This document shows positions 7,360-15,991 of a stretch of 64,000 nucleotides of DNA, in pieces. The DNA comes from an uncultured Gammaproteobacteria bacterium. Lineage in GTDB: Bacteria > Patescibacteriota > Patescibacteriia > UBA11705. Both the position numbers and the translations under genes were made by a program. The notes under the pieces are model-generated. The model had not been told where the DNA came from. It saw only the letters and a list, made by a program, of their open reading frames with translations, and searched no databases. The stretch covers positions 77,240 through 141,239 of the forward strand of contig CAZQEI010000002.1 in assembly GCA_964592195.1 (NCBI GenBank), read 5' to 3'. The stretch's first letter is position 1; every line of letters begins with the position of its first letter.

Positions 7360-9075
7360 CTACATTTCACTTAATCCATCGATATTTAACAACTGCAAAC
7401 CTTGCAAAAGCACAGTTTTTGTCTGTTTTACCAAGGCTAACCGAGTGGCACGCAATTTCATTCCCACATTCAAAATCTGTTGCGCATGATAAAAACTATT
7501 AAACAATTGAGCTAAATCAAGCAAATATGTGCACAAGATTGCCGGTTGATATTTTTCTCCACTGTGAACAATAGCTGATTCAAATTGACCTAAATGCTTA
7601 ATCAAATTTTGTTCTTCTTTAGAATTTAACAATGAATAATCTTTCGGCATAAATCCTGACCACCATCCCGCCTTACGTTCCAGTGAATTCAACCGGGCTA
7701 AACAATACAATAAATATGGTCCGCTGGCGCCATCAATGGCTGTGGCTTTTTCCATGTCAAAAACAATTACCGAGTTATTTTCATATTTCAACATGAAGAA
7801 TTTAATGGCTGCCAAAGCAATTTTTTCCGAAACCTCATTCATCTTTTCCTCTGACCAATCTGCATGTCTTTTCTTGGTTTCTACCATGACTTTCGACTTA
7901 ACTGCCTCAATAAAATCTTCCACCGGAACCACGTTACCTTTACGCGAAGCCATAGCTCCATCCGGCAAAGTAACAAAGTCATAACTGACATGAACCTTTT
8001 CTTTATTTTCGTAACCTAGTAAATCTAATAACTTGAAAACTTGTTTTAAATACAACGATTGACGATTATCAACAACATAAATTGATTGGTCTACTCCAAA
8101 TTGGTCAAACTTTTTCTTTCCCAAAGGCAAATCCTTAATTCCATACAAAACATTTCCATCAGATTTAACCAACACTAAAACTTCTAAACCAAGCTCTTTC
8201 AAGTCCGCAATAATCGCTCCTTCACTTTCTTTGATTTGCTGCACCTGTTTTTTATCCATGATCTCTTTCAATAACACGCGGCCCGCTTCTTCTTCTTCAC
8301 TTTCCCAAAACCATTCATCAAACTTTATATTTAATCTTTCGTAAATGTTTAAAAAAGCTTGAAAACTTTGTTCCTTTGAAGATTTCCATAAACCGTAAAA
8401 ATGCGGATCATGTTCTTCAATCTTTTTCTGCACCGCGGAAACTTCAGTCATGGCGTCGGGATTTTCCGCAATCGCATTGACTGCGGCTGTATACATTCTT
8501 CCGAAAAACTTCGCTTCTGATTCACCTTCTTCATGCTTCATTTCAGGATTAAACTTGTCTACATACCACAAACATTTGGCCACATGCACACCGGAGTCGC
8601 CAATATAATTCACAGGAATAACATTATTTCCCAAAGTTCTAAAAATATTCACCAAACTGGCGCCCAAAAAAGCCGTTCGCAAATGTCCCACATGAAACTC
8701 TTTATGCGTGTTGGGTTGAGAAAATTCAATCATCACTTTCTTCCCAGTCGCGGGTAAACAAATCGACTCGGTCAATATTTTTTTATTCCACCAATTTAAA
8801 TCCAAGAAAAAATTCACATACGGACCAATGGCTTTCACTTCTGACCAACAAACATCAGGCGCGCCATTCAGTTTTTCAACAAATTCTTTAGCCAAATCAA
8901 CCGGATTTGCATGCTTGTCTTTGGCCAATTCAAACATCGGCCAGGCCCAATGACCCATTTCAATTTTTGGTGGTTCAGATAAAAGCTTATAGTCAACTTT
9001 AACATCTAAAACCTTTTCTATATCTGAAACTATTTGTAATTTAATTTTTTCCATATTATTTTTTATCACGTTCAT
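7360..9075 (-). CDS. argS: arginine--tRNA ligase
   Basis: 571 aa; class I HIGH region FHVGHLRTAFLG matches the ArgRS signature HVGHLRS; MASRKGN KMSKS-like motif; C-terminus ...LSEM as in ArgRS DALR domains. Confidence 0.85.
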   Translation of the reverse strand: MNVIKNNMEKIKLQIVSDIEKVLDVKVDYKLLSEPPKIEMGHWAWPMFELAKDKHANPVDLAKEFVEKLNGAPDVCWSEVKAIGPYVNFFLDLNWWNKKILTESICLPATGKKVMIEFSQPNTHKEFHVGHLRTAFLGASLVNIFRTLGNNVIPVNYIGDSGVHVAKCLWYVDKFNPEMKHEEGESEAKFFGRMYTAAVNAIAENPDAMTEVSAVQKKIEEHDPHFYGLWKSSKEQSFQAFLNIYERLNIKFDEWFWESEEEEAGRVLLKEIMDKKQVQQIKESEGAIIADLKELGLEVLVLVKSDGNVLYGIKDLPLGKKKFDQFGVDQSIYVVDNRQSLYLKQVFKLLDLLGYENKEKVHVSYDFVTLPDGAMASRKGNVVPVEDFIEAVKSKVMVETKKRHADWSEEKMNEVSEKIALAAIKFFMLKYENNSVIVFDMEKATAIDGASGPYLLYCLARLNSLERKAGWWSGFMPKDYSLLNSKEEQNLIKHLGQFESAIVHSGEKYQPAILCTYLLDLAQLFNSFYHAQQILNVGMKLRATRLALVKQTKTVLLQGLQLLNIDGLSEM

Positions 9076-9559
9076 CTCGCAGACGATCCAACTTTTCCAA
9101 AATACTTTCTTCCTTGGCGAGAATAGTATCTTGTTTATTCAATATTTCATTTTCCATTTCCTCACTTTGTTCAATTTCCATCAATAAATCATCTTCCTCC
9201 CGATCAATTTTACGAGTAATATCTTTTTCCAATTTACGATATTGCACGGTGCTGATCATTGAAATAATTCGAGCAATAAACAACGCCAAGAAAATAAAAG
9301 ACAGAATCAGAGTTAAAAAGCATAATATGCGCCCAGCCATGGTAACAGGATACAATCCAGCCGCGCCACCCATGAAGTAAATACTCTCAATCCCGCGCCA
9401 CGCATCATTCAATGAAGTGATTTGTGGATTGGTTCGATACTCAAAAATATAGAATAACATGTCAGCGATAGCCAACCACATGATAAAAGCAAAAATCAAA
9501 ATGGCTAACAAAATATAACCGCGTCGCCGCACCAATAATTTCTCTTCATGATCATGCAT
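9056..9559 (-). CDS. membrane protein with C-terminal coiled coil
   Basis: 167 aa; two TM segments followed by a charged heptad-rich tail; overlaps the argS start by 20 nt. Confidence 0.4.
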   Translation of the reverse strand: MHDHEEKLLVRRRGYILLAILIFAFIMWLAIADMLFYIFEYRTNPQITSLNDAWRGIESIYFMGGAAGLYPVTMAGRILCFLTLILSFIFLALFIARIISMISTVQYRKLEKDITRKIDREEDDLLMEIEQSEEMENEILNKQDTILAKEESILEKLDRLRDERDKK

Positions 9560-9657: not shown

Positions 9658-12600
9658 TTATTTTAATTCTTCAAGCTGTCGAGTAAGTACTTGTTGCTTT
9701 TCATTCGCATCAGCCAGTTTTTGTTTTTCTTGAGTAATAATATTTTCCGGTGCGTTTTTCACAAATTCTTCGTTGTTCAACTTTTTATTCAAACTGTTTT
9801 GATAGTTAACCACATTCTCAAGTTCATCCGCCAAACGAACTTTTTCTTGTTCCACATCTACTAATTCAGCCAAAGGAATAAACGCTTCTACCCCAGAAAC
9901 AACTAAGGATGCCGATTGAGCCGGTTTTTCTTCTGCCCAAATTAAATTTTCAACTCGCGCCAAGAATTGAATCATGGTTTGATTATCGCGAATTAAGTTA
10001 CCATCGTTTTTTACCACTAAACTAACCTTTGTAATGGGATCAACATGATAAGCTGAACGCACATTGCGAATACCGGTAACCACTGCTTGCAAACGCGCGA
10101 AGTTAACTAAAGCATCTTCATTTACAAACTTCTTTTCTGCTTTTGGCCATTCAGTCATCATTAAACTTTCTTTTTCATCGAGCAATGCCCAAATTGCCTC
10201 AGTAACAAATGGTAAGAATGGGTGCCACAATGTCACTAAAGTTTTCAGCACATAAAACAAAATTGCTTCTTTATCTTTTTCTACTTTCGCAATTTCCAAA
10301 TACCAATCAGCCAGATCACTCCATGTAAAATTGCGCAAAGTTTCCGCCGCGGCGGAGAAATCATATTGGGCGAAATTATTTTCCACTTGCTTTTTTACTT
10401 CTTCAACACGAGCCAATATCCATTGGTCTGCCAAAGTTTTTGGTTCAACTTTACCTAACTGCTTATCTTCCAAACTAGTAATTATATACCGAGAGATATT
10501 CCACAGTTTGTTAACGAAGTTTCTGGTGCCTTCAATTTTTTCCAGGTAGAAACGAGCATCATTACCAGGAGTATTTCCAACTAGCAAAGACAAACGCAAA
10601 GCATCAGTACCATATTTTTCAATCATTTCAATCGGATCAATACCATTACCCAATGATTTGGAAAATTTTCTACCTTTATCATCACGCAAAATGCCATGAA
10701 TATACACATCTTTAAATGGAATTTCATCTAAAGCATAAGTGGTCATCAAAACCATGCGCGCTAACCAGAAAAATAAAAGTTCATGGCCCATTTGCATCCA
10801 AGTAGTCGGATGATAAGTTTTTAAATCTTTTGTTTTATTCGGCCAGCCTAAAGTTGAGAATGTCCATAAACCTGAACTAAACCAAGTATCAAGAGTATCA
10901 GCATCTTGATAAACATCCGTTGAACCGCAGTGACAAGTCACTGGAGTAGTTTTAACGGTCACGGATTGACCAGGATCAGGGTAAGTAAAAGCGTATATTT
11001 GTTCATTGGTTAAATTTTCTTGGAAACCTTGCACCACGCGCAAAACATCACCATGGGAGAAAACTAAAATTGTTTCACCGGGATGGTTTTTCCCCATTTC
11101 GCGCATGAAATCATAAACTCGATTTCTCAAAGATTCAAACGATTCAATCCCGCGAGGTGAATCCTTTTCCCACATAGAAAAACTGGTTCTGAAATTCACA
11201 AAATCATCATTATCTTTACCTTCAAATTCACCGACACCCACTTCTTTCAAGCGTTCATCAGTATTGACTGGCAAATCAAATCTCTCAGAAAACATTTTCG
11301 CTGATTCTTGCGTTCGTTGTAATGGTGAAGCATAAATGGCGGCAAACTTCGTATCTTTCAATCTAATCATCGCATCTTCAATATTTTGACGACCCTGGGT
11401 AGTTAATGGATTATTATGATTGTTTGGGTCTGCATTTAAAATATTAGTCGTATTACCCACACACTCACCATGACGATGAAAAATAAAAGTGGTTGGTGGT
11501 TGGGCCACGCAAATCTTCTCATTACACTTCTTACAATACCAAACAGGAATACGATGTCCCCACCACACTTGGCGAGAGATACACCAATCATGCAACTTAT
11601 CAATCCAATTCAAATAATTCTTTTCAAAACGTTCTGGAGTAATCTTAATTTTTTCCTTGCCATTCAATCCGGTAGTCACCGCTTCGCGCATTAAATCTTT
11701 TAAAGTTTTATCTTTACCGGGAATTTCTTTATTAACATTCACAAACCATTGCGTCATGGGCAAAGATTCCACAACATCACCAAAACGATCAGAAGTTCCC
11801 ACAGTTTGAGTTATTTCCTCTTCAGAGATTAACAAACCTTGTGCTTGTAATTGTTCCACAACTTTTTCTCTAGCTTGTTCCACGGTTAATCCGGCAAACT
11901 CGCCGAAGGAAGATTCAATTTTCCCTGCCGTATTAATTACTGGAATCAATTCAATGGGATCACCATTGGCTTTTTGTTTTTCATACATTTCAAAATCAAC
12001 CGAACTATGCGCTGGAGTCACACCTAACGCACCGGTACCAAACGCGGGATCAACTCCTTCGTCAGCAATGACTTTCAATTTCAATTTAATATCACCGACA
12101 AAATTTACTTCAAAGGTTTTACCAATATAGTCTTTGTAACGCTCGTCGTTTGGGTTAACTGCCACAGCAGTATCCCCCAACTTGGTTTCTGGTCTAGTTG
12201 TGGCAATGGCAAATGGGAAATCATGACTATATTTAAAAGTCCAAAATTTGGCTTTTCTTTCTAATGATTCCAATTCATCATCACTGCAGGTTGATTGACC
12301 AACTACGGACCAATTCACCACTCGATAACCGCGGTAAATTAAACCATCAGAATACATTCTCTCAAAAATAGTACTAACAGCTAGACTTCTTTCATCGTCA
12401 AAAGTATAGGCTAAACGGCTCCAATCGCAACTGGTACCCATTCTTTTAATTTGAGAAATAATCGTGCTTTTGCTCTTTTCCGCGTAGTCACGAACAACAT
12501 TTAACAATTTTTGTCGGCCTAATTCTTCGCGAGGATGAGCCATACCTTCAGCAATTAAATTCTTTTCAACTCGAGCTTGAGTCGCGACCGCCGCATGATC

Positions 12601-12870
12601 AGTACCGGGTAATAACAAAACTTGTTTACCATTCATCCTTTGGTAACGAGCCATGACATCCATTAAACTATTCTCCAAAGCATGTCCCAAATGCAAAATA
12701 CCGGTCACGTTTGGTGGTGGCATCATGATGGAGAATGGTTCGGCAAACAATTTTTTATGGGTATCAGGGTTGAAATAATCTGATTCTAACCATTTTTTAT
12801 AAATATCGCCTTCGTAATCCGCAGGATTATAGGCAGAAGGTATGTTTTTCATATGGTAATATTTTATCAT
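9658..12870 (-). CDS. valS: valine--tRNA ligase with an inserted histidine-phosphatase-like domain
   Basis: 1070 aa; PPPNVTGILHLGHAL and KFSKSLGN class I motifs, CP1 editing region and C-terminal coiled coil. About 185 extra residues (aa ~460-645) sit between WYCKKCNEKIC and CHCGSTDVYQDADTLDTWFSSGLW and contain RHGE, SPLQRTQESA and SHG motifs. Confidence 0.9.
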   Translation of the reverse strand: MIKYYHMKNIPSAYNPADYEGDIYKKWLESDYFNPDTHKKLFAEPFSIMMPPPNVTGILHLGHALENSLMDVMARYQRMNGKQVLLLPGTDHAAVATQARVEKNLIAEGMAHPREELGRQKLLNVVRDYAEKSKSTIISQIKRMGTSCDWSRLAYTFDDERSLAVSTIFERMYSDGLIYRGYRVVNWSVVGQSTCSDDELESLERKAKFWTFKYSHDFPFAIATTRPETKLGDTAVAVNPNDERYKDYIGKTFEVNFVGDIKLKLKVIADEGVDPAFGTGALGVTPAHSSVDFEMYEKQKANGDPIELIPVINTAGKIESSFGEFAGLTVEQAREKVVEQLQAQGLLISEEEITQTVGTSDRFGDVVESLPMTQWFVNVNKEIPGKDKTLKDLMREAVTTGLNGKEKIKITPERFEKNYLNWIDKLHDWCISRQVWWGHRIPVWYCKKCNEKICVAQPPTTFIFHRHGECVGNTTNILNADPNNHNNPLTTQGRQNIEDAMIRLKDTKFAAIYASPLQRTQESAKMFSERFDLPVNTDERLKEVGVGEFEGKDNDDFVNFRTSFSMWEKDSPRGIESFESLRNRVYDFMREMGKNHPGETILVFSHGDVLRVVQGFQENLTNEQIYAFTYPDPGQSVTVKTTPVTCHCGSTDVYQDADTLDTWFSSGLWTFSTLGWPNKTKDLKTYHPTTWMQMGHELLFFWLARMVLMTTYALDEIPFKDVYIHGILRDDKGRKFSKSLGNGIDPIEMIEKYGTDALRLSLLVGNTPGNDARFYLEKIEGTRNFVNKLWNISRYIITSLEDKQLGKVEPKTLADQWILARVEEVKKQVENNFAQYDFSAAAETLRNFTWSDLADWYLEIAKVEKDKEAILFYVLKTLVTLWHPFLPFVTEAIWALLDEKESLMMTEWPKAEKKFVNEDALVNFARLQAVVTGIRNVRSAYHVDPITKVSLVVKNDGNLIRDNQTMIQFLARVENLIWAEEKPAQSASLVVSGVEAFIPLAELVDVEQEKVRLADELENVVNYQNSLNKKLNNEEFVKNAPENIITQEKQKLADANEKQQVLTRQLEELK

Positions 12871-13018: not shown

Positions 13019-14152
13019 ATGGCTCTCTCTGACTCACAGCAAATCTACGAAGCGCTCAAGAATTCTCAAAGCGCTCTCATCACTTTCAAAAAAGAACACG
13101 ACGGCGACGCGGTCAGTGCGGGTTTAGCTCTTTCTTTACTATTGAAAAAATTGGATAAAAGTCATGACTTGGTTTGTCATGATTTTGTTATGCCCAAACA
13201 ATTCAACTTTCTTCCTGGAGCAGATCAAGTTAAGCCTCATATTCCAAACTTAAGAAAATTCATTATCAGTCTAAATACAGGTAAAGTTCAGGCTCCAAAA
13301 GTGGACTTCAACCAACTGGAAAACGAACTGCAAATTATCATCGAACCGGAAAAAGGCACTTTCCTACCTCATGACATTTCCATGAGCAATACCAAGTATC
13401 GCCATGATTTGATTATCACTTTATCAACTCCGGACTTGGACGCTTTACACACGGTTTACGATGATCACACTGATTTCTTTTTTAACACTCCAATTTTGAA
13501 TATTGATCATAGTCCGGAAAATGAAAACTATGGACATTACAATTTAGTTAACGTAACAGCTACCTCTGTTTCTGAGTTAGTTTATGATTTAATTGAAAAA
13601 ATTGATTTATCTTTAATCGATGAAAAAATCGCCACCTGTTTATTAACTGGTATGATTGTTAAAACCAAAAGTTTCAAAACCCAACGTGTTACTCCCAAAA
13701 GCTTAAGCATTGCCAGTCAATTAATGGCCATTGGAGCTGACCGTGAATTAATCATTCGCAACTTATATCAAACTCGGTCAGTTAACACCTTGAAACTTTG
13801 GGGACGAACATTACAAAAAATTCAAACCAACCCGGCCAATCAGTTGGCATGGTCTTTCATTACTCTCAATGATTTTCAAGATACTCAAACTCAACCTGAT
13901 GATATTACCGACATTATCGATGAAATGATAACGAACATTCCTTCGATTGAATTGACCTGTTTATTTTATGAAAAATCCGATGGACAGCATTGTTTAATAA
14001 AAAGCGAGGGTAAGCATAACTTACCAGACCTTTTAACTGAATATAAACCAGTCGGCAAACACGACCAAGTCCATATTCATTTAAAGGAAAGTGCACCTAA
14101 CGATTTATTGCAACATTTAGGCCAAATTTTGACCCCGGTCTTCACAAAATAA
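13019..14152 (+). CDS. DHH-family phosphoesterase (NrnA-like)
   Basis: 377 aa; KEHDGDAVSAG (DHH motifs I-II), NIDHS (degenerate DHH), GG-rich DHHA1-like C-terminus. Confidence 0.55.
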   Translation: MALSDSQQIYEALKNSQSALITFKKEHDGDAVSAGLALSLLLKKLDKSHDLVCHDFVMPKQFNFLPGADQVKPHIPNLRKFIISLNTGKVQAPKVDFNQLENELQIIIEPEKGTFLPHDISMSNTKYRHDLIITLSTPDLDALHTVYDDHTDFFFNTPILNIDHSPENENYGHYNLVNVTATSVSELVYDLIEKIDLSLIDEKIATCLLTGMIVKTKSFKTQRVTPKSLSIASQLMAIGADRELIIRNLYQTRSVNTLKLWGRTLQKIQTNPANQLAWSFITLNDFQDTQTQPDDITDIIDEMITNIPSIELTCLFYEKSDGQHCLIKSEGKHNLPDLLTEYKPVGKHDQVHIHLKESAPNDLLQHLGQILTPVFTK

Positions 14153-14249: not shown

Positions 14250-14326
14250 GGGCCTGTAGCTCAGTTGGTAAGAGCACCACTCTTATAAAGTGGGGGTCCT
14301 GGGTTCGATCCCCAGCAGGCCCACCA
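14250..14326 (+). tRNA. tRNA-Ile (anticodon UAU)
   Basis: gggcctgtagctcagttggtaagagcaccactcttataaagtgggggtcctgggttcgatccccagcaggcccacca; Ile-type acceptor stem gggcctg/caggccc; anticodon loop cuUAUaa; CCA encoded. Confidence 0.75.
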
Positions 14327-14535: not shown

Positions 14536-14612
14536 GGGCAATTAGCTCAGTTGGTTAGAGCGACTCGTTGACGTCGAGTAGGTCAAAAGTTCGAATCTTT
14601 TATTGCCCACCA
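14536..14612 (+). tRNA. tRNA-Val (anticodon GAC)
   Basis: gggcaattagctcagttggttagagcgactcgttgacgtcgagtaggtcaaaagttcgaatcttttattgcccacca; anticodon stem actcg/cgagt, loop uuGACgu. Confidence 0.85.
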
Positions 14613-15914: not shown

Positions 15915-15991
15915 GGGCAACTAGCTCAGTTGGTTAGAGCGAACGGTTCACGTCCGTTAGGTCAAAGGTTCGAATCCTTTGTTGCCCACCA
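15915..15991 (+). tRNA. tRNA-Val (anticodon CAC)
   Basis: gggcaactagctcagttggttagagcgaacggttcacgtccgttaggtcaaaggttcgaatcctttgttgcccacca; anticodon stem aacgg/ccgtt, loop uuCACgu. Confidence 0.85.

Follow-up and report, generated by a model that had tools for sequence, protein, structure and literature searches.

The stretch of 64,000 nucleotides analyzed here (positions 77,240 to 141,239 of contig CAZQEI010000002.1; called the window in the following) contains valS, the gene of a valyl-tRNA synthetase (ValRS) which carries a histidine phosphatase-like domain nested in its catalytic body. The gene order at this locus is a divergent DHH-family gene, valS, a small membrane open reading frame (ORF), argS and a bactofilin gene (Table 1). 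The NCBI version of the window ValRS, P0121, is the identical protein with the start placed 6 codons later. An earlier reading of the DNA made from its letters alone (the sequence-only reading) had described valS as an ORF of 1070 aa, about 190 aa longer than typical ValRS, with an extra block between the zinc-knuckle sequence and a conserved stretch, the block containing histidine phosphatase motifs. ORF and quoted peptides are present where they had been placed, GHRIPVWYCKKCNEKIC at aa 438-454, FIFHRHGECVGN at aa 462-473, YASPLQRTQESA at aa 513-524 and ILVFSHGDVLRVV at aa 601-613, with a conserved block following the insert at aa 646-677. The excess length was borne out as well. Among the best 120 full-length ValRS matches the median length is 1068 aa for insert-bearing versus 886.5 aa for insert-less relatives, and further proteins of about 1070 aa exist among the ValRS matches.

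The Pfam profile His_Phos_1 (PF00300) matches aa 463-633 of the window ValRS with 120 bits (E=1.3e-34), far above its gathering score of 21.7, and the match covers profile positions 2-173 of 194. The 186-aa insert, cut out alone, gives the same score as within the whole protein. On alignment with insert-less ValRS its boundaries are clean and enclosed by the zinc knuckle: the domain sits at the tip of the hairpin formed by connective peptide 3 (CP3), between the Cys pairs and ahead of the DTLDTWFSS motif. The full catalytic set, consisting of R466, H467, N473, R519, E543 and H606, is present, aligns to that of the phosphatase PhoE and is invariant in A3, and these findings bear out the motifs proposed earlier. 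The GC content of the insert (0.38-0.39) is the same as that of the remaining gene. The CP3 subdomain joins connective peptide 2 (CP2) to the second Rossmann half; it binds zinc in the isoleucyl-tRNA synthetase (IleRS) of Thermus thermophilus, not in others, and its topology varies by species (PMC7191050). Since the zinc-knuckle cysteines are wholly missing in about half of the fused ValRS, the zinc motif is not needed for hosting the domain.

Table 1. Features of the window valS gene and its neighbors, a related IleRS gene, and conservation of catalytic residues in nested domains
Feature	Position	Strand	Basis or remark	Conserved, ValRS-nested	Conserved, IleRS-nested
valS, complete putative housekeeping ValRS ORF with nested domain	9658..12870	minus	ORF, 1070 aa + stop		
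ValRS N-terminal part (aa 1-455): first Rossmann half with HIGH motif, connective peptide 1 (CP1) editing domain, CP2, start of CP3	11506..12870	minus	Pfam, motifs		
HIGH motif, HLGH (aa 60-63)	12682-12693	minus			
First Cys pair of CP3 zinc knuckle, C448-K-K-C451	11518..11529	minus			
Nested histidine phosphatase domain (aa 460-645)	10936..11493	minus	Pfam envelope aa 463-633 = 10972-11484		
RHG motif: R466, nucleophile H467, G468	11467..11475	minus	invariant in A3		
R466				62/64	77/79
H467				63/64	77/79
N473 of catalytic set	11452-11454	minus		62/64	72/79
R519 of SPLQR, phosphate-binding Arg	11314..11316	minus	residue comparison	64/64	78/79
E543 of RLKE, general acid/base Glu	11242..11244	minus	aligned to PhoE RLRE	56/64	75/79
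H606 of SHG, second catalytic His	11053..11055	minus	residue comparison	61/64	79/79
Second Cys pair of zinc knuckle, C646-H-C648	10927..10935	minus			
ValRS C-terminal part (aa 646-1070): DTLDTWFSS motif, second Rossmann half, anticodon-binding domain, C-terminal coiled coil	9661..10935	minus	Pfam, motifs		
KMSKS motif, KFSKS (aa 735-739)	10654-10668	minus			
DHH-family gene, divergent from valS, synteny marker of resident valS locus	13019..14152	plus	Pfam; same order in L081		
Predicted membrane ORF, 167 aa, between valS and argS, overlaps argS by 20 nt	9056-9559	minus	DUF3169 match below threshold		
argS (arginyl-tRNA synthetase, ArgRS), downstream of valS on same strand	7360..9075	minus	Pfam		
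IleRS with NUDIX nested at aa 226-325	L085 9129-12564 (also L086)	plus	PF00293, E=5e-15		

Around the insert the synthetase is readily recognized. The valS equivalog models NF004349 (956.6 bits, cut-off 704) and TIGR00422 (880.9 bits, cut-off 612.1) are both passed in two stretches flanking the insert, and the match to Pfam tRNA-synt_1 is also split into two, the first stretch (aa 23-456) breaking off at residue 456. Anticodon_1 was found at aa 815-951 and Val_tRNA-synt_C at aa 1005-1070, and the invariant editing-domain residues H288 and D292 are present. An AlphaFold2 model based on 93 homologues reached a mean predicted local distance difference test value of 92.1 (93-98 over the insert) and a predicted template modeling score of 0.86. 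Foldseek aligns the model with 1GAX (1gax_A), the ValRS-tRNA complex from T. thermophilus (E=1.8e-67, template modeling score 0.87 normalized to the target). A matching gene order (DHH, valS, tyrS, argS, ..., bactofilin) occurs on the related 1.08-Mb contig L081, and no second ValRS-like ORF is located within the 64-kb window. Because of the conserved DHH-valS-argS synteny and the single ValRS-like ORF of the window, the gene is that of the ordinary resident valyl-tRNA synthetase of its organism. Together with the intact motifs, these features suggest that Val charging is retained. The nearest named relatives of the window ValRS belong to Candidatus Falkowbacteria, Kuenenbacteria and Uhrbacteria, and its insert-less neighbors to Magasanikbacteria/Uhrbacteria/Parcubacteria. 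The host is a member of the Patescibacteria (candidate phyla radiation, CPR) near Falkowbacteria/Kuenenbacteria.

The nested domain is a complete histidine phosphatase domain of branch 1 and belongs to the small PhoE/PspA/CobC type. Its best solved sequence relatives are PhoE (E=1.6e-16) and CobC. The separate alpha/beta phosphatase fold expected by the sequence-only reading is seen in the confident model, with a central sheet as in PGM/PhoE. The domain stops at the last beta-strand without a C-terminal tail and is a short tail-less member of the phosphatase type. Assignment to dPGM was rejected (NF038349, 94.2 vs 225; TIGR01258, 33.3 vs 81.7; bacterial dPGM models, 23-36 bits vs cut-offs >300), as was assignment to CobC alpha-ribazole phosphatase (TIGR03162, 88.4 vs 162.9; NF011580, 60.4 vs 250); PspA-type phosphoserine phosphatase and SixA were likewise dismissed with scores below the equivalog cut-off. 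An ordinary CP2/zinc-knuckle expansion does not apply to an insert that makes up a full His_Phos fold. An intein was dismissed, because a Pfam scan of the window protein found no Hint/intein family, the C-terminal junction (...KTTPVT/CHCG) is without His-Asn, and the domain is a complete enzyme fold. The strong Pfam hit, the continuous ORF, the even composition and dozens of independent homologues speak against an assembly chimera or a chance motif match.

Conservation of the active site was counted over 201 aligned domains, of which 64 are nested in ValRS, 79 are nested in IleRS, and 58 are free or tandem copies. The catalytic residues are kept at 88-100% in the inserted copies, and these rates are indistinguishable from those of the 58 free or tandem copies. 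Inserts diverge faster than the synthetase cores (mean pairwise identity 35% vs 58%), yet the active site is still kept, which favors a working enzyme. The nested domain is thus apparently a working phosphatase. This high conservation disfavors the earlier suggestion of a remnant of a mobile domain insertion. A decaying remnant is ruled out by the conserved catalytic residues for the window gene and most of its relatives, with P0144, which is devoid of the nucleophile, standing apart.

PF00300 is carried by 26 of the best 120 full-length ValRS matches and by 81 of the 119 nearest relatives in a search seeded with one fused IleRS. The latter include Kerfeldbacteria, Uhrbacteria and entries named 'Patescibacteria group', and every named relative belongs to the Patescibacteria. 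With the insert and its flanks as query, an exhaustive HMMER run against 1.84 billion cluster representatives gave 14 hits with E-values below 1e-30, and the whole 250-aa query was matched at 30-36% identity by many long proteins. Seven representatives of the long weak-ValRS matches were checked, 5 of which turned out to be IleRS passing TIGR00392 and 2 to be ValRS with multiple copies; for the hits beyond these seven the split into ValRS and IleRS is a score heuristic. A putative phosphatase nested in ValRS or IleRS is widespread in Patescibacteria and commoner in IleRS than in ValRS. The fused proteins are labeled 'class I tRNA ligase family protein' or 'hypothetical protein' by NCBI, though the valS equivalog hidden Markov model passes its cut-off.

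Insertion sites were mapped by ValRS-N, insert and ValRS-C segments on all hits and then classed. The CP3 hairpin of ValRS hosts 53 His_Phos copies. A second ValRS site, about 35 aa beyond this hairpin and following a ...STLGWP motif, hosts 6 copies (e.g. in P0205, P0167 and P0198), and a third, after aa ~384, hosts 4. The checked fused IleRS contain one or two His_Phos_1 domains, placed either in CP3 at the position homologous to that in ValRS or after the catalytic core and ahead of the anticodon-binding domain. Across ValRS and IleRS this amounts to at least 4 different sites, and some proteins contain 2-4 copies. Such multi-copy synthetases are P0247, P0249, P0250, P0368, P0269 and P0279, with four copies in the ValRS fragment P0247 and two in the IleRS P0269/P0279. 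Proteins of ~400 aa in which two His_Phos domains stand in tandem also occur in free form and are common.

In a neighbor-joining tree of the synthetase core, computed like the insert tree without support values, ValRS with a CP3 insert appear in at least 6 places among insert-less sequences. The core of P0131 shares 80% identity with insert-less P0151 and only 64% with any other fused ValRS, and that of P0184 shares 74% with insert-less P0238. P0131 and P0151 differ by a precise indel inside the hairpin (WYRGEEI/YCGTEAPEGDGW versus WYK...His_Phos...YCDTEAPEGDGW), the hairpin of insert-less P0151 being GEEIYCGTEAPEG. Core and insert identities are weakly correlated (Spearman 0.16). In the insert tree the window domain falls into a coherent ValRS-only clade, the inserts at the GWP site form their own clade, and the IleRS inserts interleave with free proteins of ~190 aa. 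The scattered positions in the core tree, the weak correlation between core and insert, and the insert tree with its different insertion sites indicate that the domain was probably nested several times independently and/or frequently lost.

The neighborhoods of 8 free-standing homologues of ~190 aa, retrieved only by their similarity to the insert, provided further information. In 6 of these 8 loci the free phosphatase gene is located immediately downstream of argS; the remaining two contigs were too short or uninformative. The genes follow each other as argS, a 51-aa ORF, His_Phos, IVP and ileS in L084, as argS, a 51-aa ORF and His_Phos in L088, and as argS, His_Phos and ileS with gaps of 1 and 9 nt in L092/93. 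L090 contains argS, His_Phos and a convergent ileS, and in L091 the truncated flanks match the C-terminus of ArgRS and the N-terminus of IleRS. In L085-87 argS ... His_Phos is followed by two NUDIX genes and then by an IleRS which itself contains a nested NUDIX domain. The ileS gene of L090 (2682-5609, minus strand) was read with X residues and shows an in-frame stop at the conserved Trp of YPHCWRC. An ileS split at CP3, or recoding, was considered here and rejected, the stop being probably a sequencing error in a low-quality read.

Free and nested copies can be compared directly at one orthologous locus. L095 (3895-11456) and L092 (4341-9471) represent the same syntenic block (L20, IF3, SmpB ... 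argS ... ileS, RecO, CLIPPER). In L095 His_Phos is nested in ileS, and a profile search in all six frames found no other His_Phos in its 19 kb; in L092 the free gene is the only copy and ileS is insert-less. In this pair of orthologous loci, the one examined, the free and nested states are complementary. Class Ia synthetase genes thus have the phosphatase as a conserved partner, either in a packed operon or as a nested domain; where it is not nested, its ~190-aa gene directly follows argS and in most cases directly precedes ileS. In the window, valS with its nested copy is located upstream of argS, the conserved neighbor of the free phosphatase elsewhere in Patescibacteria.

Some further features of the window are related to tRNA. 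Two tRNA-Val genes map close to valS (GAC, 14536-14612; CAC, 15915-15991). ARAGORN found a tRNA-Ile with the anticodon UAU at 14250-14326 on the plus strand. AUA in bacteria is usually decoded by a lysidine-modified CAU tRNA, and the UAU tRNA-Ile suggests AUA decoding independent of TilS. An ORF of 373 aa at 1328-2446 on the plus strand, ~8 kb from valS, encodes an RNA-repair-type ligase of the Rnl1 type (RNA_lig_T4_1, PF09511, E=7e-11).

Taken together, we consider the window protein as an ordinary ValRS with a CP3-nested phosphatase that would be bifunctional, coupled to the synthetase and directed, in the version we favor, to a nucleotide-type phosphomonoester, an explanation to which we assign a probability of about one half. 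Such a protein would charge tRNA-Val and hydrolyze phosphomonoesters via a phospho-histidine intermediate on H467. Three observations suggest that the phosphatase probably acts in concert with class Ia synthetases and is not just housed in them: internal nesting recurred in two paralogues, the operon is tight, and free and nested copies are complementary. The substrate may be a nucleotide-type phosphomonoester made or needed at the synthetase, e.g. AMP/NDP-type products. This substrate class is favored because PhoE/CobC-like enzymes act on nucleotide-like substrates, because NUDIX hydrolases are encoded at the same loci, with a NUDIX domain even inside IleRS, and because MutT1, which combines Nudix and His_Phos, is a structural neighbor. 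The phosphatase could possibly act downstream of the NUDIX hydrolases, as in mycobacterial MutT1, with the substrate being a guess.

Several observations weigh against this explanation. The nearest structural neighbors of the domain are metabolic small-molecule phosphatases (phosphoserine, 3-phosphoglycerate-type and ribazole phosphate), and it reaches none of the NCBIfam equivalog cut-offs for dPGM, CobC, PspA and GpmB, so that a substrate is not transferable by homology. The RHG motif is altered in a few nested copies, to RYG with loss of the nucleophile in P0144, to RHY in P0184 and to RHR in P0133. As the pairs of high core identity demonstrate, the fusion is dispensable in close relatives. 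In the 1062-aa Patescibacteria ValRS P0212 the place of His_Phos in the CP3 hairpin is taken by an alpha/beta-hydrolase (PF06821/PF00561), from which it follows that CP3 is a general, intrinsically permissive insertion hotspot. The 64-kb window contains no NUDIX boxes, and no further RHG motifs. The neighbor-joining trees are devoid of support values, and the eight neighborhoods form a small, non-random sample of contigs.

The permissive CP3 with its alternative guest in P0212 and the dispensability of the fusion would fit a doubtful, though conceivable, alternative in which an ordinary metabolic phosphatase of the PspA or PhoE type from a translation-gene cluster was repeatedly captured in a tolerant loop of reduced CPR genomes, with no link to aminoacylation. 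However, nesting is mechanistically harder than end-to-end fusion and nevertheless recurred at no fewer than 4 internal sites in two paralogous synthetases. His_Phos also far outnumbers other inserted domains, with a ratio of 26:1 in ValRS and 81/119 in IleRS, and neither the close packing of the free gene between argS and ileS with gaps of 1-9 nt nor the complementarity of nested and free copies in orthologous loci would be expected for a passenger. A role as protein phosphatase or regulatory module, by which the synthetase or a partner is dephosphorylated (reversal of a HipA/HipT-type kinase, or SixA-like removal of phospho-His), or else a structural or dimerization role, is in our view very unlikely. 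In its favor, the superfamily includes the protein phosphatases SixA, PGAM5 and Sts, two-component genes occur beside some loci (HisKA in L081, a response regulator in L088), and a few copies without the nucleophile, such as P0144, are still retained.

Healing of the tRNA 3'-end in cis is an unlikely alternative. Here the phosphatase would unblock the CCA end by taking off a 3'(2')-phosphate, after which the same enzyme would aminoacylate the tRNA; the block could stem from NUDIX-type clipping of a toxSAS 3'-pyrophosphate or from a nuclease-generated phosphate. ToxSAS toxins pyrophosphorylate the CCA end of tRNAs and thereby block charging (10.1101/2021.04.30.441581, PMC11559606). The domain is tethered to a catalytic body that binds the acceptor end, it is nested in or shares an operon with three class Ia synthetases, and NUDIX partners occur in the same loci, and the Rnl1-type RNA ligase 8 kb away in the window is also compatible with RNA repair. 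On the other hand, nested domains do not exceed free ones in basicity, the ValRS copies having a mean net charge of -3.5, and this is weak evidence against a tRNA substrate. Small molecules are the substrates of all the closest structural relatives. We know of no branch-1 histidine phosphatase acting on RNA ends. There is also no obvious reason why the need should be limited to Val and Ile (and Arg by neighborhood), and no toxSAS was seen, although no search aimed at toxSAS was made. Even less probable to us is the extended proposal of a Patescibacteria synthetase-coupled repair or clean-up module. In this module a histidine phosphatase, frequently accompanied by NUDIX partners and either transcribed along with argS/ileS or integrated in CP3 of ValRS/IleRS, would act in cis on the phosphorylated or pyrophosphorylated tRNA 3' end or on synthetase-bound nucleotides and restore chargeability, possibly against CCA-pyrophosphorylating toxins.

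The insertion had been taken as unknown before. This holds for the literature, as full-text searches found no published synthetase-His_Phos or synthetase-NUDIX architecture, with the reservation that most subscription journals are outside their coverage and that absence is not proof. It does not hold as a claim of uniqueness, because the insertion is not a one-off and is common in public databases among Patescibacteria ValRS and more so IleRS. The architecture appears to be undescribed, and so do its wide distribution in Patescibacteria and the argS-His_Phos-ileS operon, while both component families are well known and the fused sequences are already public. Few enzymes are as highly conserved as the aminoacyl-tRNA synthetases, and to our knowledge the catalytic bodies of the bacterial ones contain essentially no additional enzymatic domains. 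The recurrence in IleRS throughout much of the Patescibacteria and the tight operon in fusion-free lineages point to an unrecognized activity linked to tRNA charging in a huge and poorly understood radiation. Essential genes downgraded by annotation pipelines may look absent, which can distort completeness estimates and metabolic reconstructions of CPR genomes. Furthermore, CP3 is a natural domain-insertion site that may be useful for synthetase engineering.

With T. thermophilus ValRS (1GAX) the window ValRS shares the whole synthetase scaffold including the HIGH and KMSKS motifs, CP1 editing domain, anticodon-binding domain and C-terminal coiled coil; it differs by the 186-aa catalytic domain in the CP3 hairpin. 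We know of no solved or described ValRS with a second enzyme in CP3. PhoE (1H2E/1EBB), PspA (4IJ5), CobC (6E4B/6NRU) and GpgP (6S2Q) are free-standing, whereas the window domain terminates with its last beta-strand and is inserted within another enzyme. MutT1, the mycobacterial Nudix plus histidine phosphatase nucleotide hydrolase (PDB 3FJY, 9CXX), is an end-to-end fusion without a synthetase; the window lacks NUDIX, and the analogy in function is presumed. Two NCBIfam families, both sub-threshold hits for the window protein, offer partial precedents. NF040702 ('isoleucine--tRNA ligase, N-acetyltransferase domain-containing') represents a class Ia synthetase with an added enzyme domain, although this is GNAT and not His_Phos in CP3. 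NF005567, the bifunctional RNase H/acid phosphatase of the Rv2228c type, represents a CobC-like His_Phos fused to a nucleic-acid enzyme, the host being RNase H. The CP3 of class Ia synthetases occupies the same position and bears a Cys4 zinc motif in some species (PMC7191050). It usually comprises 20-60 residues of variable topology, whereas the hairpin of the window ValRS is opened for a 186-aa enzyme.

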